54,268 nucleotides of DNA from a virus. Lineage: Duplodnaviria > Caudoviricetes. The stretch is from IMG/VR virus record IMGVR_UViG_3300032884_000021, positions 1-54,268 of that record, one strand, 5' to 3'. A program made the translations under genes and the position numbers. Below, piece by piece: positions 11,917-27,483 of this stretch; positions within the stretch are counted from its first letter, which is position 1; every line of letters starts with the position of its first letter. The notes under the pieces were generated by a model that did no database searches, had not been told where the DNA came from, and saw only the letters and a program-made list of their open reading frames with translations.

Positions 11917-12225
11917 CTACGTAAATTTACTCTTTGAGACGGTGAACGTCCCCTCCACCGCCGCCTGCCCGGTGCCGGTCGAATACCATTTGTAATACCA
12001 AGTCCCAACGGTGTCCGCGCTCAGGTCCACGTAATAGGCCCCGGTCGCCGTCTTAACCACAGTCCCAGCGCCATAGAGCGTCGTAGTATCCACCCCGCCC
12101 GGCTTGCGGTAGGTAAAGCCCACCACCGTCGGATCGACAGCCACCCCGGCGGCGCTCGCAAACCCGGCTGCCATGTGGATCAATGCGCCCTTATAAAATG
12201 CCTCTGATATGGTTGCTGTACTCAT
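11917..12225 (-). CDS. Small Ig-like/BppU-N-like virion protein
   Basis: All-beta pattern DPT...KPGG...TGAYYVD...GTWYYKW...EGTFTV. Confidence 0.55.
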   Translation of the reverse strand: MSTATISEAFYKGALIHMAAGFASAAGVAVDPTVVGFTYRKPGGVDTTTLYGAGTVVKTATGAYYVDLSADTVGTWYYKWYSTGTGQAAVEGTFTVSKSKFT

Positions 12226-12257
12226 TATTTATCCTCTGCATCCTTATTATATGCCGG

Positions 12258-12443
12258 TTATATGCCGGTATTGTCGGTTGCGGTGACGATTATGGAGTAG
12301 GACTCGGAGCCGGAGGCTGTGATGACGTAGGCCTCGGCCCCGGTCCCCGTGATATGGCAATGGATGTGTTGGTACACCCGCGCCAGGTACGAGCGGATTG
12401 CGCCAGGAAAGCCCAGCGCTGATAAAAACGATCTCAATGCCAT
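12258..12443 (-). CDS. Hypothetical protein
   Basis: Operon position, GGGGG RBS-like sequence. Confidence 0.5.
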   Translation of the reverse strand: MALRSFLSALGFPGAIRSYLARVYQHIHCHITGTGAEAYVITASGSESYSIIVTATDNTGI

Positions 12444-12451
12444 GATACCCC

Positions 12452-15163
12452 CTAGAAAATAAAGAACGCGTCAGAATGGCTTGGAGCGAGCGGTAAAGCT
12501 ACAACGGTAAAATGGCCTTTCCCGCCCGCCAGCGCATAGTCGGTTATCTCGGTAGCAATGCCGGACAGCGCCCCGCTGGTAAATTTTAGGTAATTCCCAT
12601 TGTAAGAATCCGCCACGGCTGCGGTGATATCCGACTCAAATGCCGTAACCGTCGCCGAGAAAGCCGCCGTATCCACCGTGCCGCGCACCGCCGACGCCGC
12701 AATGGCTGCCAGATCGGTCGCCGCCTCCACGCTGGCCGCGATGCTCCCCACGTCCGCCGATACCCGCCCGGATACCAGCGCCGCTGGTAGCCGTGATTGA
12801 ATGTTGATAACGTTGGTTGCTATCCCATCAGCCACGGTGTCCACCGTTGCGAGGTTGGTAGCCGTGGCCAGGCCGCTTTGAATTGCTGTGATTGCCGTGG
12901 CATTTGGTGCTGCCACCAGATCCATCTGGCTCCCGACCGCTGCCGGGCTTGCCGGTATCAGGTCCGTCTTGAGTTTGATGGCGTCAACTATCCCGTCAAC
13001 CGTGCCAAGGTTGGTCGCCGTCGCCAGAGCGGCGTCGGTTATCGCCGTATCGCAGGCGGCGTTGACATCAGCATCAGTCGGCAACCCGGCTATCTGGGTG
13101 TCAAGGTTTGCGCTTGCCATGCCGACAGCCGTCCGGACCCCCGCCGCGTCGAGCTGGCTTGCAGTTTTTGCGAGGTCATAGGCGGAGGTTAAAGCATAAC
13201 CGGTTTTGCTGGCGGCCACCACGACAACTCCATCCGTGCCGGTATCAGCAAGGATCGCGGCGGTATCACCCTTGACTGCCGGTAGGTCGGTCCCGTGGAT
13301 ATCATCCACGATCCCGTCAACGGTCGCCAGGTTGGTCAGCACCGTCCCGACATCGGTATGGATGTCGGCAAGCCCACCCGCCGCGTCATCAAGCAGATCA
13401 ATCGCGGCCTTTTCCGTTGTCCCGTAGTCAGCGGTAATGTGCCCGTCAATGGTTCCCACATGGACATGGACAGCCGCGATATCCGCGATTGCCGTCCCCA
13501 CGTCGGTATGCAGGTCAGAGAGGTCCGCATTAACTAGGTCGGTCAATTTCTTTCCGGCTGTCCCGCCGGTGCTATGCCCGCTCAATGCCTCGTCCCAGAT
13601 TGCATCCGCCAGCACAGACGGATCGACGCCACCGCTGGACGCCGTGGCCAGCGCCAGGCCCGATGTCCCGGCTCCGGTGTGTCCGCTCAATGCCTCGTCC
13701 CAAACCGCATCGGCCACCGTCGCAGCGCTTGGAGCAGTCGCCCCGGTGAGTGCCGCGCCTGCCGATCCGCCGGTCGCGTGTCCGGATAGCGCCTCATCCC
13801 AGACGGCATCAGCGACCGCCGCAGCCGTCGGAGCAGAAGCCGCGTCAAGGATAAGATCTAGCCTCCCGCCATTGGCCCAGTCGGTTTGTAGTTCGTTCGT
13901 ATCGGCCAGGATTGCGGCCACCTCGGTATCAAGGTATCCGGAAATCGTTGACAATGTCCCCGGTAGAGTCGTGCCGGTATCCTCCAGGATCAGCGCAAGC
14001 GACGATCCCGCCGCCTCAATAGTCGTCTTAATAGTTGCCGCTGATGGAGGAGCCCCATATCCATCAATAGCGACAATCCGCTCGTTAATGCTGTCGGCTG
14101 TCGGGCTGCCCGGTATCGCGGTATTGAGAGCGGCGTCAACCTCGGCATTGATCGCCGCAAGTGCCGTAGAATTGAACGAAACCGAGCCGTCAGATTTAGG
14201 AACTTTGGCAAGATTGGTGCCAAGCGTATCCACCTTAGTATTGACACCAGCCGTGTCATCATGGATATGCTCTAACTGATCCAAGTACCCCGCCCTTGTT
14301 GCCGTTAATCGTGTGACTAATGTATCGACTTCCCCATCAATATGCGCGTTGCCTATCGTAGCACTGTTGACAATTGCGTAAGAATCGCCGGTCTGCACCG
14401 TGCCGAGGTCGGCAACCTTAACGAGCGTTGCACCCGGATCATGGCCCGCCAATGTGTTAATGGCTGTGACGTTCAAAGCGCCCAGGTCTTTAGCTGTCTG
14501 CGCTGTGCCGTTTATTTTGGTCACATTGACAGCCTGGTCGGCGGCGAGGGTGACAGCGTTGGTAAGATTGGTGACGGTTGTAATCACGCCCGCCGTGATA
14601 TTGGTTGGCGTAGCAAGCCCGGCCTGAATTTTGGTGACCGCATCAGCCTTGACGCCCGTTGCATTGATAGCATCAGCAGCTATGCTTGTAGCAGTAATTC
14701 CGTTTGCGGCCACGCTCCCGACTGCACCAGTAACCGAGCCCACTGCACCCGATACCGCCCCGGTGATGTTCCCGGTGATATTAGCAGTCAAAGCCGTGGT
14801 GATGCTGGTAGCCGCGTTGGTCCCGGCAATAAACATCCCGCCCGCCGCGCCTGCCACCGCCGCAGGAACCGCCCCCGCCGTTGTGAATCCTATAATCGGT
14901 TCAATCCTTACATTTGCCGTGCTAGACTTGGCGTAAAGCGCAAAACTGTCGCAGTTCGTTTCCGCTGCCGTCAAATCAAAAGCGTATATTCCCGGCATAT
15001 TCGTGGCGTCCACCTGCGCAGGATTTGTATCGTCGATTGCGTTGGCCGTCCCATCCAAGGACACATACCCCGTTATTTGCGCTTGGTCATTTGCCACCGC
15101 CGCCCCGGTCGTGGAGTTGTAAGCGTAAATGTGGATTTTTTGAACTGCATTTTTAAATAGCAT
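12452..15163 (-). CDS. Large Ala/Thr/Asp-rich repeat protein, putative fibre
   Basis: 903 aa; repeats ADA(V/I)WDEALSGH x3, D(L/I)HTDVGT x2, LATATNL x2; GGAG RBS. Confidence 0.7.
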   Translation of the reverse strand: MLFKNAVQKIHIYAYNSTTGAAVANDQAQITGYVSLDGTANAIDDTNPAQVDATNMPGIYAFDLTAAETNCDSFALYAKSSTANVRIEPIIGFTTAGAVPAAVAGAAGGMFIAGTNAATSITTALTANITGNITGAVSGAVGSVTGAVGSVAANGITATSIAADAINATGVKADAVTKIQAGLATPTNITAGVITTVTNLTNAVTLAADQAVNVTKINGTAQTAKDLGALNVTAINTLAGHDPGATLVKVADLGTVQTGDSYAIVNSATIGNAHIDGEVDTLVTRLTATRAGYLDQLEHIHDDTAGVNTKVDTLGTNLAKVPKSDGSVSFNSTALAAINAEVDAALNTAIPGSPTADSINERIVAIDGYGAPPSAATIKTTIEAAGSSLALILEDTGTTLPGTLSTISGYLDTEVAAILADTNELQTDWANGGRLDLILDAASAPTAAAVADAVWDEALSGHATGGSAGAALTGATAPSAATVADAVWDEALSGHTGAGTSGLALATASSGGVDPSVLADAIWDEALSGHSTGGTAGKKLTDLVNADLSDLHTDVGTAIADIAAVHVHVGTIDGHITADYGTTEKAAIDLLDDAAGGLADIHTDVGTVLTNLATVDGIVDDIHGTDLPAVKGDTAAILADTGTDGVVVVAASKTGYALTSAYDLAKTASQLDAAGVRTAVGMASANLDTQIAGLPTDADVNAACDTAITDAALATATNLGTVDGIVDAIKLKTDLIPASPAAVGSQMDLVAAPNATAITAIQSGLATATNLATVDTVADGIATNVINIQSRLPAALVSGRVSADVGSIAASVEAATDLAAIAASAVRGTVDTAAFSATVTAFESDITAAVADSYNGNYLKFTSGALSGIATEITDYALAGGKGHFTVVALPLAPSHSDAFFIF

Positions 15164-15171
15164 TTTTGCTC

Positions 15172-17373
15172 CTATATTCCTATTTGTCTTGCGCTAGGCA
15201 TGAATATTCCACCGCCGCCGCCTGCGTATGTTCCCGCCGCTCCGTTGACCGTATCGGTAGTAATCACGCTGCTTGCAGCCGGTAAATCCACCGTATCGAA
15301 AAAAGCAAAAGCATTTCCGCTGGCACGCTTGGCGCAGCATCTCAGCAATAACGGCATGTTGTGAGTGCGTGTGTAGGTTAAAACGTGCGTTTGCTCAGAT
15401 GTGGAGTCCGCTGCGATCCATTCGTCAAGTGCTGAATACGCACCGCAGAACGGATCTTGCATCGGATCGATTATCTGCCAGTGCAATCGCTCATCAGCGG
15501 CTAATCCGCTTGCTTCCAATTTTGCGTAAACCGGGATGTAAATCACTAAATCGGTTACACCGCCAAGCTCCCATTCCATCACGTTCCAAAATGCCGAATC
15601 ATTGTATGTAAATTTGTGAGTCCATGGCTTACTGTAGATCCGCTCCCCTTCCGTCGATGGTGCCATACTCCCGCCCGCTGACCATGCGCGGGTATCGTTT
15701 GCACCTGCTGCATACCGGAAACAACGGCCTTTCAGCAATTGGCCGCCCGTAATGCCAAAATGTAATACAGGCGTTGTATTACCAGTCAGCACCATACCGT
15801 AACCGGTAAATCCAGCGTAGTAGACGCCGTTGGTGCATCCGCTGACCGTGCCGCTTATTGTGTGCCCACTGCCGTAGTAGACGCCGTAGGTGCATCCGCT
15901 GACCGTGCCGCTTATTGTGTGCCCACTGCCGGAGTAGACGCCGTTGGAGCATCCGCTGACCGTGCCGCTTATTGTGTGCCCACTGCCGTAGTAGACGCCG
16001 GAGGTGCATCCGCTGACCGTGCCGCTTATCGTGTGCCCACTGCCGTAGTAGACGCCGGAGGTATATTTATTTGCGCTAGTGCTACTTGTATTGACTATCT
16101 CGCATCCATAATTACTCCCCGTATGCCCCGCATCGGTCGTCACATAGTCCACAATTGGCTGTGCCGTTGTTGTAGTCGCAGCCCTTATGGATATATTCCT
16201 GGATGACAGCCATATCCTAGCGCCGGGTAGTTTGGCCGCGATGACTTCCGCTCCCTCCATTTGCAAAACTATTTGAGTAGAGCTTACAGTGGTAATCGTG
16301 GCGTTTATTTGGCAATCCGCATCGGATGGTGCATAATCGTCAGATATCGCTACCCGATTATGACCCGTTGCATTAACCCAACAGGACGACGCACCGGATA
16401 TATCATCCAGAACGTTGAGCGTAGGCGTATTTGACGTGGCCGCGTATCCTGCATAAGCTTCTATCGTGCCAGTTCCATCGGTGGTTAAATCAATTACCAA
16501 ACCCCCGGAATAAGCAGCCAACTGAAAGGTATTGGTAGCCGTCCCAACAACATAATACGTGGTATTCGGTTGTAATGGTGCTGGTAACGTTCCGGCTGTC
16601 ACCATCAGATGCAATGGCGTTGCATTGGCCCAACCGTGGCTATTATTAGTTAAAGTATCATTTGCTGCCGACCCTGTCACCGTCTTTTTTGTGCCATACG
16701 TCCGAACCGACGTAAGAGAAGGAGCAGCACAGCGCAAATTAAAATCCAGTAACCGTGCATCTATTTTAGCTGTGCCTGCCAAATCAATAATTGCTTTTGA
16801 GGCAAACTCCAAAGCTGTAGTCGTAGCATACACGCCGTCTGAATTAGCGCATACCCGGCCCCGGTTGGTTACATTTGTCCCGAGCAGCGTTGTCCCGGTT
16901 TTGATCTTCAGGTTTCCAATGGGATGAACGTTGGTTGTCGATGTCCCATTCTGCGTAGTCAAATCCAAAGCAGATCCACCGCTTGACATTGCCAATTGAA
17001 AAGTGTTAGTAGTTCGTCCCACTACAAAGTATTTGGTGTTAATCGCAAGCGGACTCGGTAGCGTTCCGCTGGTTGTTACAAACAACGTCTGCCCGTCCGC
17101 TAATCCATGACCGTTTTTTGTAAGCGTTTCCGCCGTAGTATCCACCGTGCAACCGGTTAATGCGCTATCTTTCCAGTATAGCAATCCCGGCGTGGCTCCA
17201 CCTGTGACCGTAACCTGTGCGCAGCCGTCCGCCCACGCGGATTGATCCACGTCCATTTGTATTTCGTGGCCAGCAGCGATAACCACCACGCCGTTATTTA
17301 CGGGTATCCCTTGCGCGTCCCAAGTGGCGGCATCGCTCCATTTTCCACTTTGCGCTGTCGTATGTGTAGCCAT
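15172..17373 (-). CDS. Multi-domain virion/receptor-binding-like protein (G8-like N-terminus, two FCCH-like HGL...YFV...TFQLA repeats, beta-helix repeats)
   Basis: SGKWSDAATW...AAGHEI; duplicated ~60-aa module; 19-aa tandem repeats. Confidence 0.7.
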   Translation of the reverse strand: MATHTTAQSGKWSDAATWDAQGIPVNNGVVVIAAGHEIQMDVDQSAWADGCAQVTVTGGATPGLLYWKDSALTGCTVDTTAETLTKNGHGLADGQTLFVTTSGTLPSPLAINTKYFVVGRTTNTFQLAMSSGGSALDLTTQNGTSTTNVHPIGNLKIKTGTTLLGTNVTNRGRVCANSDGVYATTTALEFASKAIIDLAGTAKIDARLLDFNLRCAAPSLTSVRTYGTKKTVTGSAANDTLTNNSHGWANATPLHLMVTAGTLPAPLQPNTTYYVVGTATNTFQLAAYSGGLVIDLTTDGTGTIEAYAGYAATSNTPTLNVLDDISGASSCWVNATGHNRVAISDDYAPSDADCQINATITTVSSTQIVLQMEGAEVIAAKLPGARIWLSSRNISIRAATTTTAQPIVDYVTTDAGHTGSNYGCEIVNTSSTSANKYTSGVYYGSGHTISGTVSGCTSGVYYGSGHTISGTVSGCSNGVYSGSGHTISGTVSGCTYGVYYGSGHTISGTVSGCTNGVYYAGFTGYGMVLTGNTTPVLHFGITGGQLLKGRCFRYAAGANDTRAWSAGGSMAPSTEGERIYSKPWTHKFTYNDSAFWNVMEWELGGVTDLVIYIPVYAKLEASGLAADERLHWQIIDPMQDPFCGAYSALDEWIAADSTSEQTHVLTYTRTHNMPLLLRCCAKRASGNAFAFFDTVDLPAASSVITTDTVNGAAGTYAGGGGGIFMPSARQIGI
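15817..16062. repeat. 57-bp coding tandem repeat, about 4.3 copies
   Basis: Units start at 15817, 15874, 15931, 15988, partial 16045; encodes GVYYGSGHTISGTVSGCxx. Confidence 0.97.
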
Positions 17374-17609
17374 TACTGACCCCCTTGTTGGTCGAGTTCT
17401 TCACGCGCTTCCTGCTCCGCCAGCTCCGCCGCAATCATGGCTTGCACGTCAGCGAGTATCGCTGCCTCGTCATACTCTTCACGATAGAACGCCCCGCGTA
17501 CTTTTTCGCCGTCCCATATCCAAACCAGATGTTCGTTTGGCAAATGATCATGTTGCACCACGGCGGGCGGCGTTAAAGTCCCTGCTCTGTATTCTTCCCA
17601 TCGGTTCAT
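17373..17609 (-). CDS. Hypothetical acidic protein
   Basis: TAATG coupling to the next gene; GGGGGA RBS. Confidence 0.65.
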   Translation of the reverse strand: MNRWEEYRAGTLTPPAVVQHDHLPNEHLVWIWDGEKVRGAFYREEYDEAAILADVQAMIAAELAEQEAREELDQQGGQ

Positions 17610-17621
17610 AATGCGTTCCCC

Positions 17622-17990
17622 CTACGGTATCGTAATCGTCACTGAAATCCTGATCCCGCCAGGCGCACCCGGCAATGCTGGTAATATCACCTCATTGCTG
17701 TTTGGTGACTCACCCCGGATATTGACAGCACGGGCCACGTACTTCTTAGCACCCGGCGTCACGTCAATAACCACCGCCTGAGTGACGTTCCCCGCCACCT
17801 CTGCCACCTTAACCGGCGCCGCAGGCGCGGTCACGTCGTACACCCGGACAAACTGCCATGGGTCGGTTGCTTGATTGGGATTCGTATCCCACATAAACGT
17901 TACCGAGTCGGCAGCGTATGATGGCACGGATAGCGCCAATCCGGCAGCGATGATCAGCAGCAGGAATGCTTTCATTTTGATACGGTTCAT
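17622..17990 (-). CDS. Exported fibronectin type III-like protein
   Basis: Signal peptide KAFLLLIIAAGLALSVPSYA; VTFMWD...YVARAVN..GESPNSNEV FN3 pattern. Confidence 0.75.
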   Translation of the reverse strand: MNRIKMKAFLLLIIAAGLALSVPSYAADSVTFMWDTNPNQATDPWQFVRVYDVTAPAAPVKVAEVAGNVTQAVVIDVTPGAKKYVARAVNIRGESPNSNEVILPALPGAPGGIRISVTITIP

Positions 17991-18010
17991 TTATTCGGTC
18001 CTTTCGTCTG

Positions 18011-18466
18011 TTATGCAGTTTGGTTAAGGCCCAGGATACCCCAGGCTTCCTCAATCCAATTGACGCCGTGGCGGTCACCCAAGACGACGTTGATAAGTAG
18101 CCGAAGCACCGGGCCATCCACCGCTTCGACCAGCTTCCCGATTACCCCTGTAAAGGTAATTGCGTCATCAATTATTTCGACCGCCGCCTGCGCCAGCATG
18201 GCCCCTGATATCAACGTTCCCTCCGGCTGCCCTTTAAGCAGTTCAGCCCTGGCGACTTCCAACGAGGCCATCACGGTATTAAACACAGCGACAATATTCC
18301 TCCAGAAAGTAGGGATATCATTCCAGTTAAACTTCGCCAACTGCTTGACGGACAACCAAACCGCGCTGGCATTCAGTAGCCGGTTTGCCTCCGATTTGAG
18401 TTTGTACTTGTCGATGGTTATGCCGATAACGGCATTCCTGCTTGTCGATTGCGTCACTTTTACCAT
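18011..18466 (-). CDS. Hypothetical lysis-region protein
   Basis: AAGGAG RBS; amphipathic helical composition. Confidence 0.65.
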   Translation of the reverse strand: MVKVTQSTSRNAVIGITIDKYKLKSEANRLLNASAVWLSVKQLAKFNWNDIPTFWRNIVAVFNTVMASLEVARAELLKGQPEGTLISGAMLAQAAVEIIDDAITFTGVIGKLVEAVDGPVLRLLINVVLGDRHGVNWIEEAWGILGLNQTA

Positions 18467-18532
18467 AAATCTCCTTTGTTTATCAGTTATGATTACGTCA
18501 CAATTACGTTATTATTGCGTCCGGTTACACCA

Positions 18533-18763
18533 TTAATAAGCCGCAGGAGGCTTAGCATCAGGCGTTCCCGCAACGGGTGCCGTGTGGGTTGCGTTAAAGT
18601 CTTTGGCCAAGAGCAGCCCCAGCCCAAGCGTGATTTCCGGCATCATCCGGGCCACGTCCAGCGGTGTCCCTGCCTGGTACGCGGTGATCGCGTTGATGAT
18701 TACATTCAGCAGGGTCAACACCCCGAAAAGACTTGTTTTCCATGATCTCAGTGTTAGCGACAT
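18533..18763 (-). CDS. Putative holin
   Basis: SWKTSLFG start, two hydrophobic segments, AKD tail; RBS before ATG 18763 (track ORF extends to 18874). Confidence 0.6.
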   Translation of the reverse strand: MSLTLRSWKTSLFGVLTLLNVIINAITAYQAGTPLDVARMMPEITLGLGLLLAKDFNATHTAPVAGTPDAKPPAAY

Positions 18764-18874
18764 TATGGATTCCCTCTTCCTCTCTATCGGTTCCGATGGT
18801 TTATAATATGTCAGGTATGGCGTTGGCTTGAAAGCCCACGATTCACTGTAATTTGTGCCGTTTACGTTGTTCAT

Positions 18875-19567
18875 TTAGAATATCTTCCTTATGCCTTTCC
18901 CGATTTTCTTTAACCCGCCGCCGATCCACGCCAATGGCCGGGTCAACTTCTCCACCCGCCGTGCGGTCAACGCGCTGTCCTCCGCCGCCTGTTGCACGTG
19001 GAACATGGTCGCAGTGAGTTGCGGGGAGGTTGTCCGTGCCTCCAGCGCCTCAATGGCCCGCTTGGACGCCGCAAGGTTTTCATTAACCTCCTGGGTTAAT
19101 AATTCCCCGTGCACAGATATTTGCTCTACTGCGTCAATCGTGGCTTCCAAGGCACGATCCGTGTTATCGAGCGTGTTATGGATATCACCGGAAACTTCTT
19201 CAATAGCCACCAGAGCAGCGGGAACCAGTCGGCTATTGATATTTTCGGATGTATCTCGAATTGCATCGCGGGTGTCGTCCAAAAGTACGTTTGCCTTTTT
19301 CACGGTTCTTGCCAGGTCATCCCCGCTACGCAGTAATAACCCGACGCCGCGTCTCACCTGCGGATCGTCAAATTGAACCCGTGCCGCCCTGGAATACTCC
19401 TTCCACTCCGCCACCGCCGCCCGTGTCTCCATCAGGGCCTGCTCCGCTTGCAGGCTTGCCCGTATTATGGCTTCCTGCGCCGGGCCTATGGTGAGGTAAG
19501 CCTTGACGCCAATCGCACAAAGGATCGTCAGCAGGAGGCAGTGAAGCGCCTGTTTTACGCTATTCAT
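18875..19567 (-). CDS. Membrane-anchored coiled-coil protein, possible spanin-like
   Basis: N-terminal TM segment, long heptad region, basic amphipathic C-terminus; downstream of the endolysin. Confidence 0.5.
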   Translation of the reverse strand: MNSVKQALHCLLLTILCAIGVKAYLTIGPAQEAIIRASLQAEQALMETRAAVAEWKEYSRAARVQFDDPQVRRGVGLLLRSGDDLARTVKKANVLLDDTRDAIRDTSENINSRLVPAALVAIEEVSGDIHNTLDNTDRALEATIDAVEQISVHGELLTQEVNENLAASKRAIEALEARTTSPQLTATMFHVQQAAEDSALTARRVEKLTRPLAWIGGGLKKIGKGIRKIF

Positions 19568-19772
19568 CGGGCGGTGTCTCTTCCGGAGGAGGCTTTTTCT
19601 GCCTGAATTTCCCATCAATGGCCTGACGCATGATTGCATCGGTAGAAAACAGCTTTTCCATCACTTCCCGTTCCGTCATTCCGTTTCTAAGCATGGTATC
19701 AATGGCACGCCTAATTCCTTCCGACACGGCGGCCCCCACCATGTAGCGAAATACTTCTCCGTTGGCTTCCAT
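19560..19772 (-). CDS. Hypothetical protein
   Basis: TAATG coupling to the endolysin. Confidence 0.6.
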   Translation of the reverse strand: MEANGEVFRYMVGAAVSEGIRRAIDTMLRNGMTEREVMEKLFSTDAIMRQAIDGKFRQKKPPPEETPPDE

Positions 19773-20218
19773 TAAGCCTTCCTCTGAAAATGCGGACGGT
19801 CTCTAATGGTCTTATACCTGCCGCCCCAATCCAGTCCAACGCTCTCACCTATCGCGCCTATCTTCTCCCATAAAGCATTATCACTCCAAATAGCATCGCC
19901 ATTCTCCACAGGTACGGCGTCGTAGGCAATCCCCAGCACGTGCGGACATTCCGGCCCGTGACAATGGGTAACAATATTCCCCGGTCCAGTGTGCGCCCCG
20001 TGGCTCTCCCATTCCCGGATTTCCTCGGCTATCAGTTGCGCGACGCTATCGGGTAATTCATCGAGCAGGCGGCCATTCGCATACAACAGGGCCTGTTCCT
20101 TCTCGGTTCTCCGGGTGTTGTAGACTACCAGGGTAATATCCGCCGCCGCGCACGCCGCGATGTGGGCATTGCACATCCGGATCATGTTAGGTTCCAAGGT
20201 TGATATTAGGTGGCTCAT
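19772..20218 (-). CDS. Endolysin, peptidase M15 (L-Ala-D-Glu peptidase-like)
   Basis: RTEKEQALLYANGR, CPHVLGIAYD (SxH...AxD with S replaced by C), WGGRY..IRDRPHFQ. Confidence 0.88.
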   Translation of the reverse strand: MSHLISTLEPNMIRMCNAHIAACAAADITLVVYNTRRTEKEQALLYANGRLLDELPDSVAQLIAEEIREWESHGAHTGPGNIVTHCHGPECPHVLGIAYDAVPVENGDAIWSDNALWEKIGAIGESVGLDWGGRYKTIRDRPHFQRKA

Positions 20219-22209
20219 TTGCTTACGCCTCCCAGGAATAGCCGTTCTTTAAGTGCCGTTTTTCCCTCGCACGTTGGCCGCTGTGAAAAGCCTTCTTCCT
20301 TAACCATCAGCGCTGCCCGGCTGTAAACGTCGTGTACTTTCGCCTGGGTTCCTACGACCCGCAAACTCCGTAAAATCGCCCAGCTCCACGCCCCATTATA
20401 CCGCCCGCCAATATAGGCATCGGCGCTGGTTTGATCGTGCTGTGACCCAGCTAACAAGATGTGGTTCATACTTGCACAGGACATCCCGTAACCTTTCAAC
20501 TGTTTTAGGCCCAGCCGATTGACAGGCAGATCGGCGGATACTTTGCCAAGCGAGATCGGTGCATTCCGGAATTTGCTTTTATGCTGGAGTCCCGGAGGAT
20601 GAATACCGTTTCCATTCCTCGTCCCGGTCCCTGAAAAACAGTTATGAACAAATATTCCTTGCTTGACAGCAAAGTTATGATATTTTTCAACTGTAATGTC
20701 GTATACAGTCTCAATCCTACCCGTTTTTTCTACACTTACCACTTTGTGATTATTCTGGGCAATCATATCTTTAGCCCATTCTTTAAAAGGTGTGGTTTCT
20801 CTGGAAATAATCCCATGCCTTGTCAGTTTACCGTATTGACCCATTAGGCGTAGTGATTGCTTTCGATCCTCAGTTCTCAGTGATTGATAGAGTTTACTGC
20901 CAGGATCGAGAAATTGAATTCTTCTCTTTTCTTGAATTGCGGCCTTTATCTCTGGGTCTTTAGCGATGGTTCGCAGCCTTTCTATGTTCTCGGGACTCCT
21001 CACGATCTCATACAGATCTCCGCCTTGTTTTTGTCTGTTAGCTGTACTTTCTCTATTCGCCTCTGAATAATTGTAAGCCTTGAACTTTTCAGACAAACCA
21101 TCCCTCTCGAACCTGAGCAGCCCGGCCTCTACCCTTTGTTTCTTTTGAACTGGATCGTTCCATACCTTTGTCAATCGTTCTGATTGCTGATGCCGATACT
21201 CTTCTGATTTGCGCCATTTTCTAAACTCAGGGTCCGCCCATGTTTTATTCAAATTTCTGCGCCCAACCTCACCATGAGCATGGAGGTGTTGTTCCCATGT
21301 TAGAATGTCAAGGTTTTCAGGTCGGTTATCCCGCTTATCAAAGTTCTTGTGATGGGAGACTTTCCCGGATTCGTTTATGCCTAATAACCCCACGGCATCA
21401 CAAACTAATCGGTGTGTTTGCCTCCATCTCCCCCGGCCCCTCATATCTTTTGTCAGCTCGTATCCCTTTAAGTACCCCGCATCTCCTATTTTCCGGTAAA
21501 GAGGCATGAGCGATTCCCCGGGTATTAAGTCGATTGCTTTTTTATACGTCCCATCTCGCATCATTATTAAGTGGTTATCCGTACACTCAACAACCTCTCC
21601 ATTATCCAGTGTTACCTTTACAATCTCCGCCTCCCTTGTGGCTTTGGGATTGAATGCTTTGCCAGGAACAATTGCACCTTCCGGAGTGGATGAATATAGC
21701 CAATACTCACCGCCCTTGTCCGCCATTTCCTTAATCGTTATTTCGGTTCCATCCAGAAGTGGAATTATCGTATTGCCGGATAAACACGAGTCAAGGATAA
21801 CCGTCAGGTAATGGAGCTTAGATTTTAGTTTGAAAATATCCCGCAAAACGTTATCCGTCAGCGGGTCATCCCAGTAATCATCCACGTCGTAAGGGCATAT
21901 AATTTCCGACAGATGATCCCCATCCGACGCGTCTTCCGGTGCCGACCTTACTTGGCTCCCGTGACCGCTATAACTAAAGAACAATTCTGCCGGTTCATTC
22001 TTTTCGGCAATCCCCATAAGCCAGTGCAGGCCGTCGATAATATTATGCTTCGTGGCGAACTTGTTAATTAGCGTAACGTTTTTGTTCAGGGACCAACCTA
22101 TGCGTTGCAGATATTCCGACATATCCTCGACATCGTTTTCGCAGCCGAATAGGTCATTACCCGGCGTTTTATACGTGTTAATCCCAACAAGAAGAGCGTG
22201 TTTTTGCAT
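20215..22209 (-). CDS. Metacaspase (peptidase C14) precursor containing an intein
   Basis: ALLVGINTY, LFGCENDV, YSGHGSQ (catalytic His), ICPYD, ILDS|intein|CFSG (catalytic Cys), p10-like LLAGSQHDQTSADA...GAWSWA...QRP. Confidence 0.92.
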   Translation of the reverse strand: MQKHALLVGINTYKTPGNDLFGCENDVEDMSEYLQRIGWSLNKNVTLINKFATKHNIIDGLHWLMGIAEKNEPAELFFSYSGHGSQVRSAPEDASDGDHLSEIICPYDVDDYWDDPLTDNVLRDIFKLKSKLHYLTVILDSCLSGNTIIPLLDGTEITIKEMADKGGEYWLYSSTPEGAIVPGKAFNPKATREAEIVKVTLDNGEVVECTDNHLIMMRDGTYKKAIDLIPGESLMPLYRKIGDAGYLKGYELTKDMRGRGRWRQTHRLVCDAVGLLGINESGKVSHHKNFDKRDNRPENLDILTWEQHLHAHGEVGRRNLNKTWADPEFRKWRKSEEYRHQQSERLTKVWNDPVQKKQRVEAGLLRFERDGLSEKFKAYNYSEANRESTANRQKQGGDLYEIVRSPENIERLRTIAKDPEIKAAIQEKRRIQFLDPGSKLYQSLRTEDRKQSLRLMGQYGKLTRHGIISRETTPFKEWAKDMIAQNNHKVVSVEKTGRIETVYDITVEKYHNFAVKQGIFVHNCFSGTGTRNGNGIHPPGLQHKSKFRNAPISLGKVSADLPVNRLGLKQLKGYGMSCASMNHILLAGSQHDQTSADAYIGGRYNGAWSWAILRSLRVVGTQAKVHDVYSRAALMVKEEGFSQRPTCEGKTALKERLFLGGVSK
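20641..21786 (-). mobile_element. Intein (382 aa) with HNH homing endonuclease
   Basis: Block A CLSGNT, block B VECTDNH, HNH THRLV...HHKNFDKRDNRPENL, block F/G VYDITVEKYHNF...VHN followed by Cys+1. Confidence 0.93.
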
Positions 22210-22248
22210 GATAAAAATCCTTATAGCCTTATGCCTGTTGCCTTGCGC

Positions 22249-22806
22249 CTACGGTATCGCGGCATGAAACAATTTCATTATCAAGTACCCTAGCGCCGAA
22301 AAGACTACCGGCAGAATCCCCGCAATCCATTTAAAGGTGTGGACCGTGGACATCATTTCTTCTTTCGCCAAAAACAGTTCGTTTATCCTTTTGGCCAGTT
22401 CGGCGTTCGCGGCCTCGGCGTTTCGCATATTCACGAAGATGTTGTTGAGGTCTTTGGCGATCCGTTCCTGGTCCAGTTTGAAATCGTGAGTAATCTTTTC
22501 CCGCACCAACTTGAACTCGTTCAAGGCATCCTTGATCTCTCGAACGTCTTTCCAAACTTCATCCACTTCGGTTCTGAGTTGAGCGCGGGTAACGTCATTA
22601 ACCGCACTGGTTTGCACCAGTTTCGTGATTACCTCCGTAAGGTTGTCAATCGCGGTTTTCAAGGACTCATTCTGAGAATTGAAGGCGGCTCGCATCCCTC
22701 CGATATCATCGGTGATTTTTCCGATGGCCGCTTCCCGGTTCTTATAAATGATATCGTGCAAGTAACATTGCCCGTGGGCAATCGGCGGTTGACGTGGGTT
22801 AGCCAT
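22249..22806 (-). CDS. Coiled-coil protein with C-terminal TM helix (holin/XhlA-like position)
   Basis: Heptad repeats then WIAGILPVVFSALGYLIM; first gene of the lysis block; AAGGAG RBS. Confidence 0.6.
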   Translation of the reverse strand: MANPRQPPIAHGQCYLHDIIYKNREAAIGKITDDIGGMRAAFNSQNESLKTAIDNLTEVITKLVQTSAVNDVTRAQLRTEVDEVWKDVREIKDALNEFKLVREKITHDFKLDQERIAKDLNNIFVNMRNAEAANAELAKRINELFLAKEEMMSTVHTFKWIAGILPVVFSALGYLIMKLFHAAIP

Positions 22807-22819
22807 TCAGGCTCCTTTT

Positions 22820-25540
22820 TTACGGGGTAATCAGCCCGTGGGTTCTGAGTTTGGCCATGAGGTCGTTCAACTGGGTTTGCAGAGAGTTGATCATGGTGAC
22901 TTCGTTCGCTGAGTAGGTTGCGTCCGCGGTCCCGGTCACATCCGCTACCGCCGCTTGCCGGATTCCTACTACCTGAGTTCCGTTGATCTTCAGCACCCCC
23001 GCCGCCGCACGGATATCAACCAGATTGGTGTCGAGCCATAGGCCCTGTTGGACAGGCGTGGCGGTGCTATCGTAAGAGCCGATGATGTTGTAGTCGGTTC
23101 CTGCCGCCGTGACGCTGAACACCTTCAGGTTCAGCCTGGCTTTGTACGTGCCGCCGTCTATGAAATGAATCTGCGCCCCGGTGGCGAGTATGGCTCCGAG
23201 GTTATTGGCGGCTACTCTCCGGAACCCCATCGTTTTATCGTTCAAAAAGGAGTACGCCGGTTCGGTGCTGGTTCCATCGGTGGCGAGTAGTTGATTCGTG
23301 TCGAAAAAAGTATCCTGAAGAACGGCGTCGCTCCCCTCTGAGCGAATCACGTTGTAATTGGTTCCCGTCGTAGCCGCATAGTTACCACGTAAGTTGATCT
23401 GGGCGCGGTTGGTTATGTTTTGGAGTAGCAGTTCCGCATCCCCCACAGTGAACCCCAGGATGTTACCGGATAATCTGAACATTCCTATACCTAATGCATT
23501 GGCAAAAGTAAACATTGGTATAGCCGAGGTTCCATCCATCCCTGATATAACTTGATTAGCATTAAATGCTAATGACCCCAAGACACTTGTGGTCGCATAA
23601 TTCTTATACGCCATTATATTCGCTACGTTGTTACCGCTCATCTCCAAGCTAAGGACAGCCGTGGGACCTGTCCTCACTCTCATCGTATTTGCCGGAGCGT
23701 TTATAACCGTCGAGGGGCCGGTTGAGTCGTACCACATCCCCGCAGCGGTGCTGTTGGTGAAGGAATAACTGGGGGCAACGGCAGTGCCATTTGCTAAGCG
23801 TAGTAGGGTGGCATTGATCGTATCAACATTAAGAGCCGTGGCATCAATGTTTAAACCGGTGAGTACGCCATCTCTGTTTTCAGCCCGGATAGTAGGGTTC
23901 AACACGTTTACGCTTGAGGTTCCATTTCGTATGGTGAATCGGGGATGAGAGCTAGCAATATTATCAAAATAATACGCTGTATAAAGTGCCACTTGTAAGC
24001 CAAGTTTTCCCGCAGACATCCGGTACATGCCCATTTCAGGGTCATTTACAAAAGAATACGCTGGTAAATATATTGTTCCGTCAACGTTCATCTTTATTTG
24101 AGTAACGTCAAAAATAATGGGTTGAACTACGTTTACTGAACTAAGTGTTCGTATTATAGGAGTGTAGGCCCCTACAGTTGACGTGGAGTTCTGGAGTGTA
24201 AATCTTGGCTGATAAATTGTTGGGATATCAAACGTAAATTTTGTGCTCGAACTCCCAACAGAAATACCGAGCAGATTAGTTCCCCCTCTGTATATGCCCA
24301 TAGCGGGGTCACTTACGAAAGTATACGCCGGTGAAGAAACTAGCCCATCCGTAATCATCCTAATCGATGCTGCATCTATGGTGAGCGGCAATAGCGTTGT
24401 TGTATTTTGTGCGTCAACTCGGATAGACGGTGAAAGTGCCGTCGATGCTGTTCCGTACGTTCTTAAAATAATTCTTGGCTGGTAGTTTGTAGGGTTATCA
24501 AAGAAGATTATTCCAGAATATTGCCCTGGCGTAAATGCAAGGATTTTTACTCCTGCCCGATACATGCCCATAACAGGGTCACTCACGAAAGTATACGCCG
24601 GGCCACTAAACGCTCCATCCGTAATAATCCTAATCGATGCTGCATCTATGGTGAGCGGCAATAGCGTTGTTGTATTTTGTGCGTCAACTCGGATAGACGG
24701 TGAAAGCGTTTGAAGGGTCGTCCCTTGAGTTCTCAGAATAATTCTTGGCTGATAATTTACGGTACTATCGAATAGTACCGCTCCGGAGTTTATTCCTGGA
24801 GCGAAGCCGAGCGTCTTTGCGCCAAGCCGATACATACCCATAGTCGTCTCGCTTGCAAACGAATACGTTGGAGCAGCTAACGTGCCGTCAGTTAATCTAA
24901 GCGGGTCAGGAATCCCCGATCCAGTAGCGCACGCCCCCCACGTTGACCCTCCGGTAGAATTCGCAATCAAGCATTGGTTATTCGTTCCAGCCGTAGTCGG
25001 CAACGAATATTCCGTTGTTCCTCCGAAATTCAAGTAAACCTTGGAAGCTTGTAGCTTTAAATCTACTAGGGTTCCATCGAACGCCGCAGAACGAATCCAG
25101 TTTTGATACCCAGTACCGGAACCATCCGTACCCCTACGCAAACGTATTCCCCCATCTTGGCTATTGAACCCGCTAAAATCCACGTAGTTGTAATTTACAA
25201 TGCCGAAACCAGTCTTAGCTTGATGGACAACATACCCATCGGCATGTCTATACCACCCCACATAAGGATCGCTGGTGTAGGCCAAGGAAGGTTCCGTAAT
25301 CGCACCATCGGCTAAAAGCACCCTGTCGGTAACAACCGCAGAGGAACAGGCCGACCACGCCAACACGCCCGATCCGTCGTTCGTTAGGCACGATCCGGAT
25401 GAACCTTGCGCCGTCGGCCAAGTTACCGTATATTCACCGATGTTAATCTGCCGCCACTTTACCAATTGTTCCTGCGCGGGACAGCCAACGGTTCCGACCA
25501 AAAGTATCAGTAATACAACCTTTTTCCAGCTACTTTTCAT
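22820..25540 (-). CDS. Fibre-like repeat protein with N-terminal signal peptide
   Basis: WPTAQGSSG.CLTNDGSGVLAW fibre motif; about 8 DG...P.Y(S/T)F....G(M/I)YR repeats; C-terminal LNDLMAKLRTHGLI; starts MKSSWKKVVLLILLVGTVGC. Confidence 0.75.
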   Translation of the reverse strand: MKSSWKKVVLLILLVGTVGCPAQEQLVKWRQINIGEYTVTWPTAQGSSGSCLTNDGSGVLAWSACSSAVVTDRVLLADGAITEPSLAYTSDPYVGWYRHADGYVVHQAKTGFGIVNYNYVDFSGFNSQDGGIRLRRGTDGSGTGYQNWIRSAAFDGTLVDLKLQASKVYLNFGGTTEYSLPTTAGTNNQCLIANSTGGSTWGACATGSGIPDPLRLTDGTLAAPTYSFASETTMGMYRLGAKTLGFAPGINSGAVLFDSTVNYQPRIILRTQGTTLQTLSPSIRVDAQNTTTLLPLTIDAASIRIITDGAFSGPAYTFVSDPVMGMYRAGVKILAFTPGQYSGIIFFDNPTNYQPRIILRTYGTASTALSPSIRVDAQNTTTLLPLTIDAASIRMITDGLVSSPAYTFVSDPAMGIYRGGTNLLGISVGSSSTKFTFDIPTIYQPRFTLQNSTSTVGAYTPIIRTLSSVNVVQPIIFDVTQIKMNVDGTIYLPAYSFVNDPEMGMYRMSAGKLGLQVALYTAYYFDNIASSHPRFTIRNGTSSVNVLNPTIRAENRDGVLTGLNIDATALNVDTINATLLRLANGTAVAPSYSFTNSTAAGMWYDSTGPSTVINAPANTMRVRTGPTAVLSLEMSGNNVANIMAYKNYATTSVLGSLAFNANQVISGMDGTSAIPMFTFANALGIGMFRLSGNILGFTVGDAELLLQNITNRAQINLRGNYAATTGTNYNVIRSEGSDAVLQDTFFDTNQLLATDGTSTEPAYSFLNDKTMGFRRVAANNLGAILATGAQIHFIDGGTYKARLNLKVFSVTAAGTDYNIIGSYDSTATPVQQGLWLDTNLVDIRAAAGVLKINGTQVVGIRQAAVADVTGTADATYSANEVTMINSLQTQLNDLMAKLRTHGLITP
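24357..24706. repeat. 80-bp perfect direct repeat at 270-bp spacing (24357-24436, 24627-24706)
   Basis: Identical DNA encoding LSPSIRVDAQNTTTLLPLTIDAASIR. Confidence 0.9.
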
Positions 25541-25925
25541 TGGATACTCCTTCCTTGGGTTTGGCCCCCACTTCGCCGGTTTCCATATTAAGGGTGTCGT
25601 CCTTGCCGATATCGTACTTTTCGGAAATGGCCTTGAACTTGGCCTGCAATGCCGTTTCCAATTCCTTCATTTTCTTTTCCGCGATAGACGCTTGCATTTT
25701 CAGAGCGTCCACCTGGTGAATCAGATCGCGGATTTCCAGCAAATCAAGCCGGTCGATCTTCTTCGGCGCTTTCGTGGCATCCACCTTCGGAACATCTACT
25801 TTTATTGCGTCCACTTTCGGGGCTTCGGGTTTGGAGGCGGCCTGCGCAAAGGCGGGAACACAGGAAGCGATTGAAACCACCTCAGCAAACAACACAACCA
25901 GCAAACACAGATTCTTGAAATTCAT
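25530..25925 (-). CDS. Exported coiled-coil protein
   Basis: Signal-like N-terminus LCLLVVLFAEVVSIASCVPAFA; AAGGAG RBS. Confidence 0.65.
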   Translation of the reverse strand: MNFKNLCLLVVLFAEVVSIASCVPAFAQAASKPEAPKVDAIKVDVPKVDATKAPKKIDRLDLLEIRDLIHQVDALKMQASIAEKKMKELETALQAKFKAISEKYDIGKDDTLNMETGEVGAKPKEGVSNEK

Positions 25926-25934
25926 GCTTTCTCC

Positions 25935-26654
25935 TTAAATAGATCGAGTTTGGAATGAGAGATAAACTGTGTCACCAACTTCCGGGGCTGCATTAAACAC
26001 AACTACATTAACGGACCCCACACCTTCAGTAACCGTATAATGTGTATTGGGGTATTGAAGAACACCGTTCAGAAACACCAATAGGGAGGTGTAAACCACA
26101 GGATATCCGCAGGTGAATTCGGTGATAACCCCATCCACCTGATATCCGGAAAAGAGCGCCCGCAGGATATCCCCGCCTCCCCCGCCGCTACTTCCACTGA
26201 CAGCGGATACAATCGCAATCGTTCGCCGGTCATGGGTGGCAAAATCTCCCGTAAATTGCGCGTTCAGAGCGGTTACTTCCGCAATTGGGAAGCTACGAAC
26301 GGGAAAGCCTACGGTCGAAGAGGTCACGATAGCCGCATCCCAATCGTAGTAGACATAACTGGTGGCACTGTCGGGCAGGGCAATATACCCATCCGCCACC
26401 GTGCGGACTACGTTTCCGCCAACCACCCGGCCCCCGTGATACGCCCACTGCAAGCCCGACGTAGCTGATTTCCTTTCGGCAAAGGTATTGAGGGCCACCG
26501 GGCGAGGCCCCAGGGCGGTCTGGATTGCTTCAATCTCGTCATCTCGCGGGTTCAACGTGGCCGCCTTGATGTCGATCCCGGTTCCTGGCATGGCGGGGTT
26601 ATCATCGACCCAATCGGTGAAAGCCACTATGCTATCTGGGTATGAGACTGCCAT
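25935..26654 (-). CDS. Putative tail/fibre-associated protein
   Basis: SYPDSI...DEIEAIQTALG N-terminus; C-terminal VFLNGVLQ...YTV...FNAAPEVGD module typical of phage tail proteins. Confidence 0.65.
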   Translation of the reverse strand: MAVSYPDSIVAFTDWVDDNPAMPGTGIDIKAATLNPRDDEIEAIQTALGPRPVALNTFAERKSATSGLQWAYHGGRVVGGNVVRTVADGYIALPDSATSYVYYDWDAAIVTSSTVGFPVRSFPIAEVTALNAQFTGDFATHDRRTIAIVSAVSGSSGGGGGDILRALFSGYQVDGVITEFTCGYPVVYTSLLVFLNGVLQYPNTHYTVTEGVGSVNVVVFNAAPEVGDTVYLSFQTRSI

Positions 26655-26670
26655 TTTGTTCCCTTAAATG

Positions 26671-26691
26671 AAAAAGCCTCCCGAAGGAGGC
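26671..26691 (-). terminator. Intrinsic terminator
   Basis: GCCTCC-TTCG-GGAGGC-TTTTT on the minus strand. Confidence 0.85.
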
Positions 26692-26717
26692 CTTGGTTTT
26701 AGGCGATTCCGCTATTC

Positions 26718-27179
26718 CTACTCTTCCAAGATCGGCATCAGAGCGTTCAAAAGCCCGGTGGGAATATCCATACCGGTCCCGTCCGCCTTCTTGAAAATGT
26801 TCAATTTCAGCTTCGGGAACTCGGTTCCGTCGTAGGGGGATTCCAAGAAAGCCCTGGCATCCTGGATCACCGGAGCGTACTCCTCGAATAGTTTCCCCAT
26901 CAGAGCGCTATCCTTGCTCTGGGCTGCTCCCATGGCCTTCTGCTCATACTCAATATAGGGCTTTAGGGATTCACGCAGGATTTTGGCCTCCTCGGCCACG
27001 TAGCGCAGGGTCTTGATGATCCGGTAGGAGGATTCCACCGCCATTTTCTCATCCAAGGCAACCAGGCGCCCAAGCGCCCCCTCAATCTGGATCAATTCGC
27101 CGTTGGAGATATTCATTTTCTCGGCGGGTTTTTCAAACTTCTTAATCGATGCCATTTCAGTCAGTCCTTTCTTAAACAA
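26718..27179 (-). CDS. Hypothetical protein (possible fibre chaperone)
   Basis: Helical protein downstream of the tail tip gene; likely start 27155. Confidence 0.6.
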   Translation of the reverse strand: MFKKGLTEMASIKKFEKPAEKMNISNGELIQIEGALGRLVALDEKMAVESSYRIIKTLRYVAEEAKILRESLKPYIEYEQKAMGAAQSKDSALMGKLFEEYAPVIQDARAFLESPYDGTEFPKLKLNIFKKADGTGMDIPTGLLNALMPILEE

Positions 27180-27462
27180 TTAATGATAGTGCGGCAGTCA
27201 GGCCGCTGACGGTAGACAACAGTACCGAATCCGATACCGTACTCGGATCGGACATAGCCGCGATTGTGGGATTCGACAGAACCATTAAGGTCACATTATG
27301 TATGCTCAGTCTATTTTCCAAGATCGCCCTAACTAGCCGTTGGCGAGTGTCCGTGAGAGGGTCTTCCGCCGCAATCGTTACCGCATTCTTGACCAGATAA
27401 TACTGAATACGGGTCTGTAAACTCTCCGTCGATGCTACTGTGTATGAGTCACTTACTTCCAT
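27172..27462 (-). CDS. Hypothetical protein
   Basis: AGGGGTGG RBS; follows the tail tip gene. Confidence 0.6.
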   Translation of the reverse strand: MEVSDSYTVASTESLQTRIQYYLVKNAVTIAAEDPLTDTRQRLVRAILENRLSIHNVTLMVLSNPTIAAMSDPSTVSDSVLLSTVSGLTAALSLIV

Positions 27463-27483
27463 ATCGCCACCCCTTTGCTTTAT

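Follow-up and report, generated by a model that had tools for sequence, protein, structure and literature searches.

A metacaspase-like protease with an intein at its catalytic cysteine and a gene coupled to that of an endolysin: a possible part of a phage lysis module

In the linear IMG/VR virus record IMGVR_UViG_3300032884_000021 (54,268 bp; CheckV completeness ~61%; this whole stretch is referred to below as the window), a gene encoding a caspase-family protein of 664 amino acids (aa; 20215..22209, minus strand) overlaps the start of an M15-type endolysin gene and carries an intein directly before its catalytic cysteine. Based on its sequence, the product is a real metacaspase-like (C14B) cysteine protease, complete and apparently functional. 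Because caspase and endolysin genes are paired likewise in several further phage lineages, the protease probably helps to burst the host; whether it belongs to the lysis module as a part in its own right is, in our assessment, an even call.

Family and active site of the protease

The 664-aa open reading frame (ORF), which has AAGGA 9 nt before its ATG, matches Pfam Peptidase_C14 (PF00656) in two stretches at 7.3e-22 (78.6 bits, cut-off 21.4), separated by an intein. The N-extein (residues 1–141; 21787..22209, minus strand) is the p20-like part with the catalytic His83, within SGHG, and Asp140; the C-extein (residues 524–664 plus stop; 20215..20640, minus strand) contains the catalytic Cys524, an Arg/Lys-rich linker and a p10-like part with QTSADA. 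When we joined the exteins in silico, the resulting 282-aa sequence, with SGHG (His83) and LDS-C-FSG, aligned end to end with intein-free homologues of 270–315 aa and showed no gap at the junction; the junction reads LTVILDS-CFSG, and LTVILDSCFSG is identical in four of these homologues (P0001–P0004). Viewed alone, the N-extein has 56–58% identity to P0001–P0003. The original prediction, made from the letters of this DNA, had described a C14 peptidase with its His in SGHG, its Cys in DS-C-FSG after splicing, a p10-like region and a spliced extein of 282 aa; the Pfam match, the intein position, the splicing residues and the junction alignment all agree with that description.

Across the 10-sequence alignment of the clade to which this protein belongs (A4), the His, the Cys and the Asp two residues before it (Cys-2) are invariant. 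A profile of this clade, searched against PDB, matched solved metacaspases at 2e-36 to 1e-21, among them 7qp0 (2e-36), Yca1 (4f6o; 5e-34), AtMC4, AtMC9 and TbMCA2, and these matches cover the p20-like part as well as the p10-like part with its QTSADA. In PADLOC, the protein matched the generic “caspase” model only (3.6e-19). Asp140 aligns with the FDSCHSG motif of Yca1, at a position presumed to belong to an acidic S1 pocket that would give Arg/Lys specificity; we infer that the spliced protease is Arg/Lys-directed. Metacaspases and orthocaspases are expected to cleave after basic residues (PMC6426788). The caspase of the window has no signal peptide, and it is therefore made in the cytoplasm.

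An intein directly before the catalytic cysteine

The interrupting element (382 aa, residues 142–523; 20641..21786, minus strand) is an intein of class 1 that probably includes an HNH homing endonuclease. It matches Pfam Intein_splicing (PF14890) at 8.2e-21 and the NCBIfam models for intein N- and C-termini (TIGR01443 and TIGR01445) above their cut-offs. Its motifs include a CLSGNT start at residue 142 (Cys1), TDNH at residues 210–213 and a VHN end at residues 521–523, followed by Cys524 at position +1. The endonuclease match to HNH_3 (5.6e-5; 23.1 bits) lies just below the cut-off of 24.8, and matches to PHROG HNH families reach 1.2e-8. Because the junction reads as it does in the intein-free proteins P0001–P0004, the +1 Cys524 of the intein is also the catalytic Cys of the protease; and because the intein parts Asp140 from Cys524, the precursor is predicted to be inactive until spliced.

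Inteins occur elsewhere in this family. PF00656 and PF14890 are combined in at least 38 proteins among the 120 matches listed, and three intein sites are found in caspases: one precedes the catalytic Cys and is the site used in the window, another follows SGHG immediately, and the third is at a conserved EI(I/V)C-P motif. Intein-bearing phage caspase proteins fall within P0266–P0363. The window intein is 58–59% identical to the inteins of P0266 and P0267, whereas the exteins are only ~33% identical, and this difference suggests homing of the intein between divergent caspase genes. Among the sequences seen of its own clade, the window alone bears an intein. The element resembles inteins of other phage genes (terminase, portal, helicase and ribonucleotide reductase) in being of class 1, in its putative HNH endonuclease and in its insertion at a conserved active-site residue, and inteins related to it sit in portal, RecA, RtcB, ThyX and DnaB-type proteins; it differs from them in that its host protein is a caspase-family protease.

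Coupling of the protease gene to the endolysin gene

The gene that follows the caspase gene encodes a 148-aa protein (19772..20218, minus strand) that matches Pfam Peptidase_M15_4 at 7.6e-11 and the PHROG endolysin family phrog_465 at 2e-17; like the caspase, it has no signal peptide. The caspase stop and the endolysin start overlap as ATGA, and a GGGAGG lies 9 nt upstream of the endolysin ATG, within the last caspase codons (..L-G-G..). Caspase and endolysin are probably made together, since the ribosome-binding site (RBS) of the endolysin lies inside caspase codons and the stop and start overlap. Directly upstream of the caspase gene is the gene for cc185, a 185-aa coiled-coil protein (22249..22806, minus strand) with a hydrophobic C-terminal anchor (residues 161–179). 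The arrangement is thus the one originally described, with the caspase lying between a coiled-coil gene with a transmembrane (TM) segment and the M15 endolysin, whose start its stop overlaps.

Three relatives share this pair: L082 and L083, which are contigs binned in one metagenome-assembled genome (MAG), and L163, a metagenome contig. Their caspases are intein-free and 44–49% identical to the N-extein of the window, and each is directly followed by an M15 endolysin (59–69% identity; 65–69% between the window endolysin and those of L083 and L082). A fourth relative, L008, has the reversed order, M15 then caspase. All five close M15 homologues found (≥49% identity; window, L082, L083, L163 and L008) adjoin a caspase gene; none of six weaker M15 matches, on contigs of 1–7 kb, has a caspase nearby. 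When either extein was used as a single-sequence query against viral contigs, no close relative came up.

In L083, the order is fibre, coiled-coil TM protein, caspase, M15 endolysin, a few intervening ORFs and a homologue of the window gene orf151; this contig also shares the 906-aa fibre-like gene, orf131 and orf239. L082 shares the coiled-coil protein, the caspase, the M15 endolysin and the orf151 homologue. The last two are separated in L082 by just one ORF, of 64 aa with two hydrophobic segments, whereas the corresponding interval of the window holds orf70 and a TM plus coiled-coil ORF instead. In all four of these genomes, the C-terminal ..(F/L)-x-G-G codons of the caspase give the GGAGG RBS of the endolysin (window 20219–20240; L082:8805-8835; L083:6155-6185; L163:815-840). 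A gene pair of PIN plus AbrB/SpoVT type, identified from the appearance of the translations, lies on the opposite strand just past the M15 endolysin in L083 (6676-7379, minus strand) and L163 (1345-1925, minus strand).

Recurrence of the pairing in other phage lineages

An alignment of the nearest intein-free proteins served as query for a scan of IMG/VR, in which 163 of 183 candidate stretches were confirmed; 80 loci were returned, for which ORFs were called by a simple script and neighbors clustered. The caspase gene directly abuts an endolysin gene in 10 contigs (9 distinct sequences), and the endolysins concerned belong to four Pfam hydrolase families, plus one recognized by PHROG only. 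In L059, the caspase is followed by an Amidase_3 protein (8.5e-31) with an ATGA overlap. The lysin comes before the caspase in L006 (Amidase_2, 2.8e-16), in L013 and its duplicate L014 (Phage_lysozyme, 1.2e-11), in L008 (M15_4, 2.9e-13) and in L005, where a phrog_465 endolysin (1.3e-15) lies 39 nt before the caspase. All but the last, which PHROG added, were located by searches of whole records and borne out by direct scans. Most pairs overlap by 1–8 nt: the junction is ATGA in the window and L059, TGATG in L082, TAGTG in L163, TAATG in L006 and an 8-nt overlap in L008 and L013, and L083 has a 2-nt gap.

In a FastTree tree of 155 caspase sequences (from crudely called ORFs of 200–420 aa, identical ones dropped), the window, L083, L008, P0001–P0005, P0007 and P0008 form one clade, here called the M15 clade (SH-like support 0.988), and L005, L006, L007, L009 and L013 form another, group B (SH-like support 1.0). 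Distant from these two clades, among bacterial sequences, is L059 together with L058. Because these three are separate, the adjacency occurs at three places in the tree; either gene can come first, and the lysins are unrelated. Close relatives within group B differ in their lysin type, and the position of the caspase stays constant.

The enrichment count drew on seven hydrolase matches, namely those of three families in 48 records (4.30 Mb) and the M15_4 match of L008, which comes from a partly different set of 48 records. Approximately 0.15 adjacencies were expected and four were seen, which gives a rough Poisson P of ~2e-5 that ignores the kinship of L006 and L013; no hydrolase occurred at the second position from the caspase in this set. 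A Pfam tally of second neighbors (105 of 106 ORFs, one 1990-aa ORF dropped) likewise had no hydrolase among the 25 of 56 families listed (down to ~5e-15), albeit not as a clean control.

Caspase-endolysin adjacency is clade-specific. The original prediction had proposed a survey of C14 genes next to endolysin or holin genes and had named homologues at random genomic positions as one outcome that would speak against it. The survey supports a non-random pairing, in 10 contigs; the contrary outcome is also seen in part, in that more distant homologues occur elsewhere (among Hsp20 and ClpS genes in the synteny group here called group A, in jumbo phages and in bacterial MAGs).

Several results of the same searches weigh against assigning the protease to lysis. 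Hydrolase Pfam families were found in only 4 of 108 direct neighbors outside group A, among the 25 of 40 families listed, with one member each of Amidase_3, Amidase_2, M15_4 and Phage_lysozyme; the other matches included RecA, gp32, Gp23, T4 gp15, glycosyltransferases and similar proteins. (These 108 came from 110 dereplicated ORFs, those of 2114 and 1849 aa having been dropped.) The amidase of L003 lies ~6 kb from its caspase, and in L010 and L033 (records of 244 and 273 kb) the hydrolase is >100 kb away. A second scan, seeded with caspases of group B and of the L059 type, gave 34 further distinct loci, and none of the 13 searchable records has an adjacent hydrolase; an Amidase_2 lies ~4.8 kb upstream in one and ~120 kb away in another. 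Kinship also links L006, L013 and L005, and the gene order in L082, L083 and L163 may simply be inherited, since these are relatives of the window. The PIN/AbrB pair after the endolysin of L083 and L163 indicates that the region takes up cargo, and no holin or spanin family was recognized in the window by Pfam or PHROG.

Other contexts of the family point the same way. In group A, which comprises 16 viral loci and of which one representative (L023) was scanned, the caspase is followed by Hsp20, ClpS and a SufBD-like gene; judged by these genes, the group is a protein-quality-control rather than a lysis setting. In bacterial MAGs (one genome per species), at least 561 of 600 candidate stretches were confirmed, and no conserved partner of the bacterial caspases was found, the largest neighbor cluster covering 7 of 65 loci; 15 of 80 loci gave no caspase ORF, the ORF caller being crude in high-GC DNA.

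The bacterial homologues are mostly from Desulfobacterota-type, Acidobacteriota, Nitrospirota and spirochaete MAGs. The settings of the distant viral homologues comprise the Hsp20/ClpS context, T4-like genes and jumbo phages with a lysin >100 kb away, and two of the more distant viral records are classed as proviruses. In an exhaustive protein search, 5476 representatives were counted at E≤0.001, of which 480 reached E≤1e-10, and only 1 of 50,697 GenBank phage records, an uncultured 485-kb phage, has a homologue. Giant-virus (GVMAG) contigs (L062, L065, L069, L072, L076 and L081) carry caspase homologues beside eukaryote-type genes, including cullin, topoisomerase I, eIF4E and PI3/PI4 kinase.

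Membrane features of the lysis-linked loci

Lipoprotein genes and small membrane genes with one or two segments, both of which are expected in lysis cassettes, flank the caspase gene in L004–L007, L009, L013 and L059. The lipoprotein conserved in group B has ~125 residues in its mature form and an LFxGC lipobox, and its gene either immediately follows that of the caspase or lies two genes ahead of it; group B loci also have ORFs of 61–79 aa with one or two hydrophobic segments. Unrelated lipoprotein genes lie directly upstream of the caspase in L059 and L004. In the alignment of the group B lipoprotein (A7; L006:8902-9351 with its homologues), ATPR is invariant and precedes a short C-terminal tail of basic character, and a PDB fold search with the predicted model of this protein (pLDDT 68, pTM 0.69) gave no match at E≤0.001.

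Outside the M15 clade, the N-terminus of many phage caspases is a short aromatic amphipathic helix, or a TM segment plus KKK, with a Pro/Asp/Glu-rich linker after it; group B caspases start MCK(L/I/F).. We infer that these N-termini target the protein to the membrane on its cytoplasmic side. Short amphipathic N-termini (MCKLC.., MGCKC.. or MKAFWIWLL..) occur in L005, L006, L007, L009, L013, L010, L011, L017, L018, L060 and L061, and a true TM segment followed by KKK occurs in the caspases of L003, P0011 and P0014.

Genes surrounding the protease in the window

Nearly every long ORF of the window is on the minus strand, and the PHROG matches describe a siphovirus-like late region with a large terminase (48923–50239), portal (47520–48893), major head protein (42905–44065) and tape measure protein (34370–38014). 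The caspase gene is transcribed in the same direction as these late genes. Fibre-like genes lie on both sides of its block. The one upstream (22820–25540, minus strand; 906 aa) has a homologue in L083, and upstream of it lies orf131 (25530–25925, minus strand; 131 aa), which has a signal sequence, a lipobox-like IASC, a coiled coil and a homologue in L083; it could be a lipoprotein of an envelope-disruption step. From the 906-aa gene, the order of transcription is cc185, caspase, M15 endolysin, orf70, the TM plus coiled-coil ORF, a 113-aa membrane ORF, orf151, a secreted 122-aa ORF, orf78, a 733-aa ORF and a 903-aa ORF.

Searches with cc185 gave generic coiled-coil matches only (Pfam, PADLOC and NCBIfam). 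It has homologues at the same position in L083 (30%) and L082 (27%). A candidate identity as an XhlA-like lysis membrane protein, suggested by its form, found no family match: PHROG 1193 “hemolysin” matched weakly at E 0.0046 with no stretch passing alone, and there was no Pfam XhlA match at E≤1. The coiled-coil gene of L082 (L082:7477-7914) stops before the hydrophobic anchor that is kept in L083 and the window, which could be a true truncation or the result of a frameshift or of faulty assembly. A predicted complex of the L083 caspase (A4) with its coiled-coil neighbor (A5, residues 1–145) scored 0.00, which speaks neither for nor against binding.

Downstream of the endolysin, orf70 (19560..19772, minus strand; 70 aa) has no hydrophobic segment, and the TM plus coiled-coil ORF (18875..19639, minus strand) combines a hydrophobic segment near the N-terminus with a long coiled coil and, at the C-terminus, a tail that is basic and amphipathic. 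Translation of the latter ORF probably starts at an internal ATG (19567), giving 230 aa. With its TM segment and coiled coil it is a candidate i-spanin-like protein in form; neither within nor downstream of it was a lipoprotein partner seen, and none of the fetched loci has a homologue. The 113-aa membrane ORF (18533..18874, minus strand) is a possible holin, and BLASTP between it and the two-segment 64-aa ORF at the equivalent position of L082 was not significant. None of these three ORFs has a family match in Pfam, PHROG, PADLOC or NCBIfam. The block common to L082 and L083 is closed by orf151 (18011..18466, minus strand; 151 aa; 52–57% identity), whose Atlas look-alikes are viral hypothetical proteins, with a weak, sub-threshold lead to Phage_holin_6_1. 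Searches of the nine neighbors with Pfam, PADLOC and NCBIfam identified no gasdermin, TIR, CARD or sensor domain, and no TPR or CRISPR partner was found nearby.

The downstream 733-aa fibre-like ORF (15172–17373, minus strand) has a weak PHROG tail fibre match (9.6e-8) and a tandem 18-residue unit (..GVYYGSGHTISGTVSGC..), and the 903-aa ORF (12452–15163, minus strand) has a repeat unit containing AVWDEALSGH. A promoter and terminator scan of 12000–27500 had a yield no higher than that of shuffled sequence; within this interval no terminator-like site was seen near the caspase, the nearest on the minus strand being at 26694–26673. By megablast, no GenBank phage matched 17000–26000. A search for matching sequencing runs gave one DNA run (0.05 word share) and no RNA run.

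Discussion

The original prediction proposed that this phage uses a caspase as a late lysis-module component, which might process a pore-forming or spanin-like neighbor, time lysis, mature fibres or cut a host defense protein. The gene, the intein, the catalytic dyad, the coupling to the endolysin and a recurring adjacency all stand, and the link to lysis proves to be clade-specific. If the proposal holds, the Arg/Lys-directed protease would, after splicing, act on the envelope of the cell at about the moment of lysis. In the version that we prefer, it would cleave a membrane-associated target from the cytoplasmic side and so set or speed lysis; possible targets are the product of the upstream gene, the tail-anchored coiled-coil protein, or a protein of the host inner membrane. 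In an alternative version, it would exit with the endolysin through the holin lesion and cut envelope protein links, in a LysB-like manner. A wider claim, that caspase-like proteases are an unrecognized, recurrent class of phage lysis proteins besides holin, endolysin and spanin, that they act as trigger or helper in step with the endolysin by cutting a membrane or envelope protein, and that they are here gated by splicing, is one we put forward only tentatively and with more doubt than belief.

The protease may instead serve late host takeover or counter-defense, cutting host proteins such as defense effectors, factors of the stress response or of proteostasis, or debris-borne receptors, with the lysis operon supplying late, strong expression in a region that readily takes up cargo. 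Such a role would suit the largest viral synteny group, in which the caspase accompanies Hsp20 and ClpS, the bacterial homologues without fixed context, which is typical of conflict genes, and the PIN/AbrB pair inserted beside the endolysin in L083 and L163. Caspase-like proteases are moreover known as effectors of bacterial immunity, in type IV Thoeris (PMC13243611) and in CARD/gasdermin systems (10.1101/2023.05.28.542683). Against this, the caspase gene overlaps the endolysin gene in both orders and with four unrelated lysin families, PADLOC recognizes it by the generic caspase model only, and no defense partner is found among its neighbors. Cargo genes, besides, usually bring their own signals. 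We regard host takeover or counter-defense as the main rival, a serious but lesser possibility. That the gene instead kills or disables the host conditionally, for example on superinfection, is unlikely in our view: metacaspase-like proteins are generally discussed in connection with prokaryotic cell death (PMC9612521 and PMC4669768), and two more-distant viral records are classed as proviruses, but here the gene sits inside the late unit of structural and lysis genes, and no terminator-like site is close to it.

The products of the fibre-like genes on either side of the cassette (22820–25540, the 906-aa fibre also present in L083, and 15172–17373 with its PHROG tail fibre match) would be the substrates if the protease processed tail fibres during virion maturation. 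Yet its constant direct neighbor is the endolysin and not a fibre gene, and L006, L013 and L059 have no fibre gene beside the caspase; to our knowledge, no virion maturation protease is of caspase type, and we think this function quite improbable. It is least probable, to the point of being hard to credit, that the caspase is inactive or decaying and a mere host of a selfish intein. The active site is indeed interrupted, and three sites in the family have been invaded, but the frame is open, the dyad is intact, no splicing residue is missing, and conserved sites of functional proteins are where inteins usually lie.

Among characterized proteins, the closest are the Type I metacaspases and orthocaspases (MEROPS C14B; Yca1, TbMCA2 and Microcystis MaOC1), which share the fold family, the His-Cys dyad, the Asp at Cys-2, the union of a p20-like and a p10-like part in one chain, and the QTSADA motif. 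The protein described here differs from them in being phage-encoded, in lacking an N-terminal prodomain, in the intein at its catalytic Cys and in its translational coupling to an endolysin, and we know of no cellular metacaspase in such a setting. LysB of mycobacteriophages is an extra hydrolase encoded beside the endolysin (LysA) in the lysis cassette, which the alternative version of our explanation would resemble; however, LysB is a serine esterase whose target is a lipid-sugar bond, whereas the present protein is a cysteine protease with no sequence relation to it. The caspases of bacterial immunity (gasdermin-activating proteases, type IV Thoeris and Craspase) likewise have a clan CD caspase-like domain active in phage-host conflict, whereas this protein is phage-encoded, small and single-domain, without a gasdermin, TIR, CARD, TPR or CRISPR partner nearby. 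Our literature search, which had most subscription journals outside its coverage, returned no description of a phage caspase in a lysis cassette or of an intein in a caspase. Many metacaspases, and inteins in other genes, are reported in PMC4853749, and the words caspase and endolysin are absent from the text of PMC7824862.

The caspase family emerges as an unusually rich host of inteins, whose three sites at active-site motifs would make natural splice-dependent protease switches. Phage lysis is understood as three steps, carried out by holin, endolysin and spanin. If the proposed role is true, a protease that is kept beside the endolysin even as the lysin itself is exchanged would be a new part of the lysis system, and it would give a first defined role to a phage-borne metacaspase, an enzyme otherwise discussed in connection with host cell death and defense.

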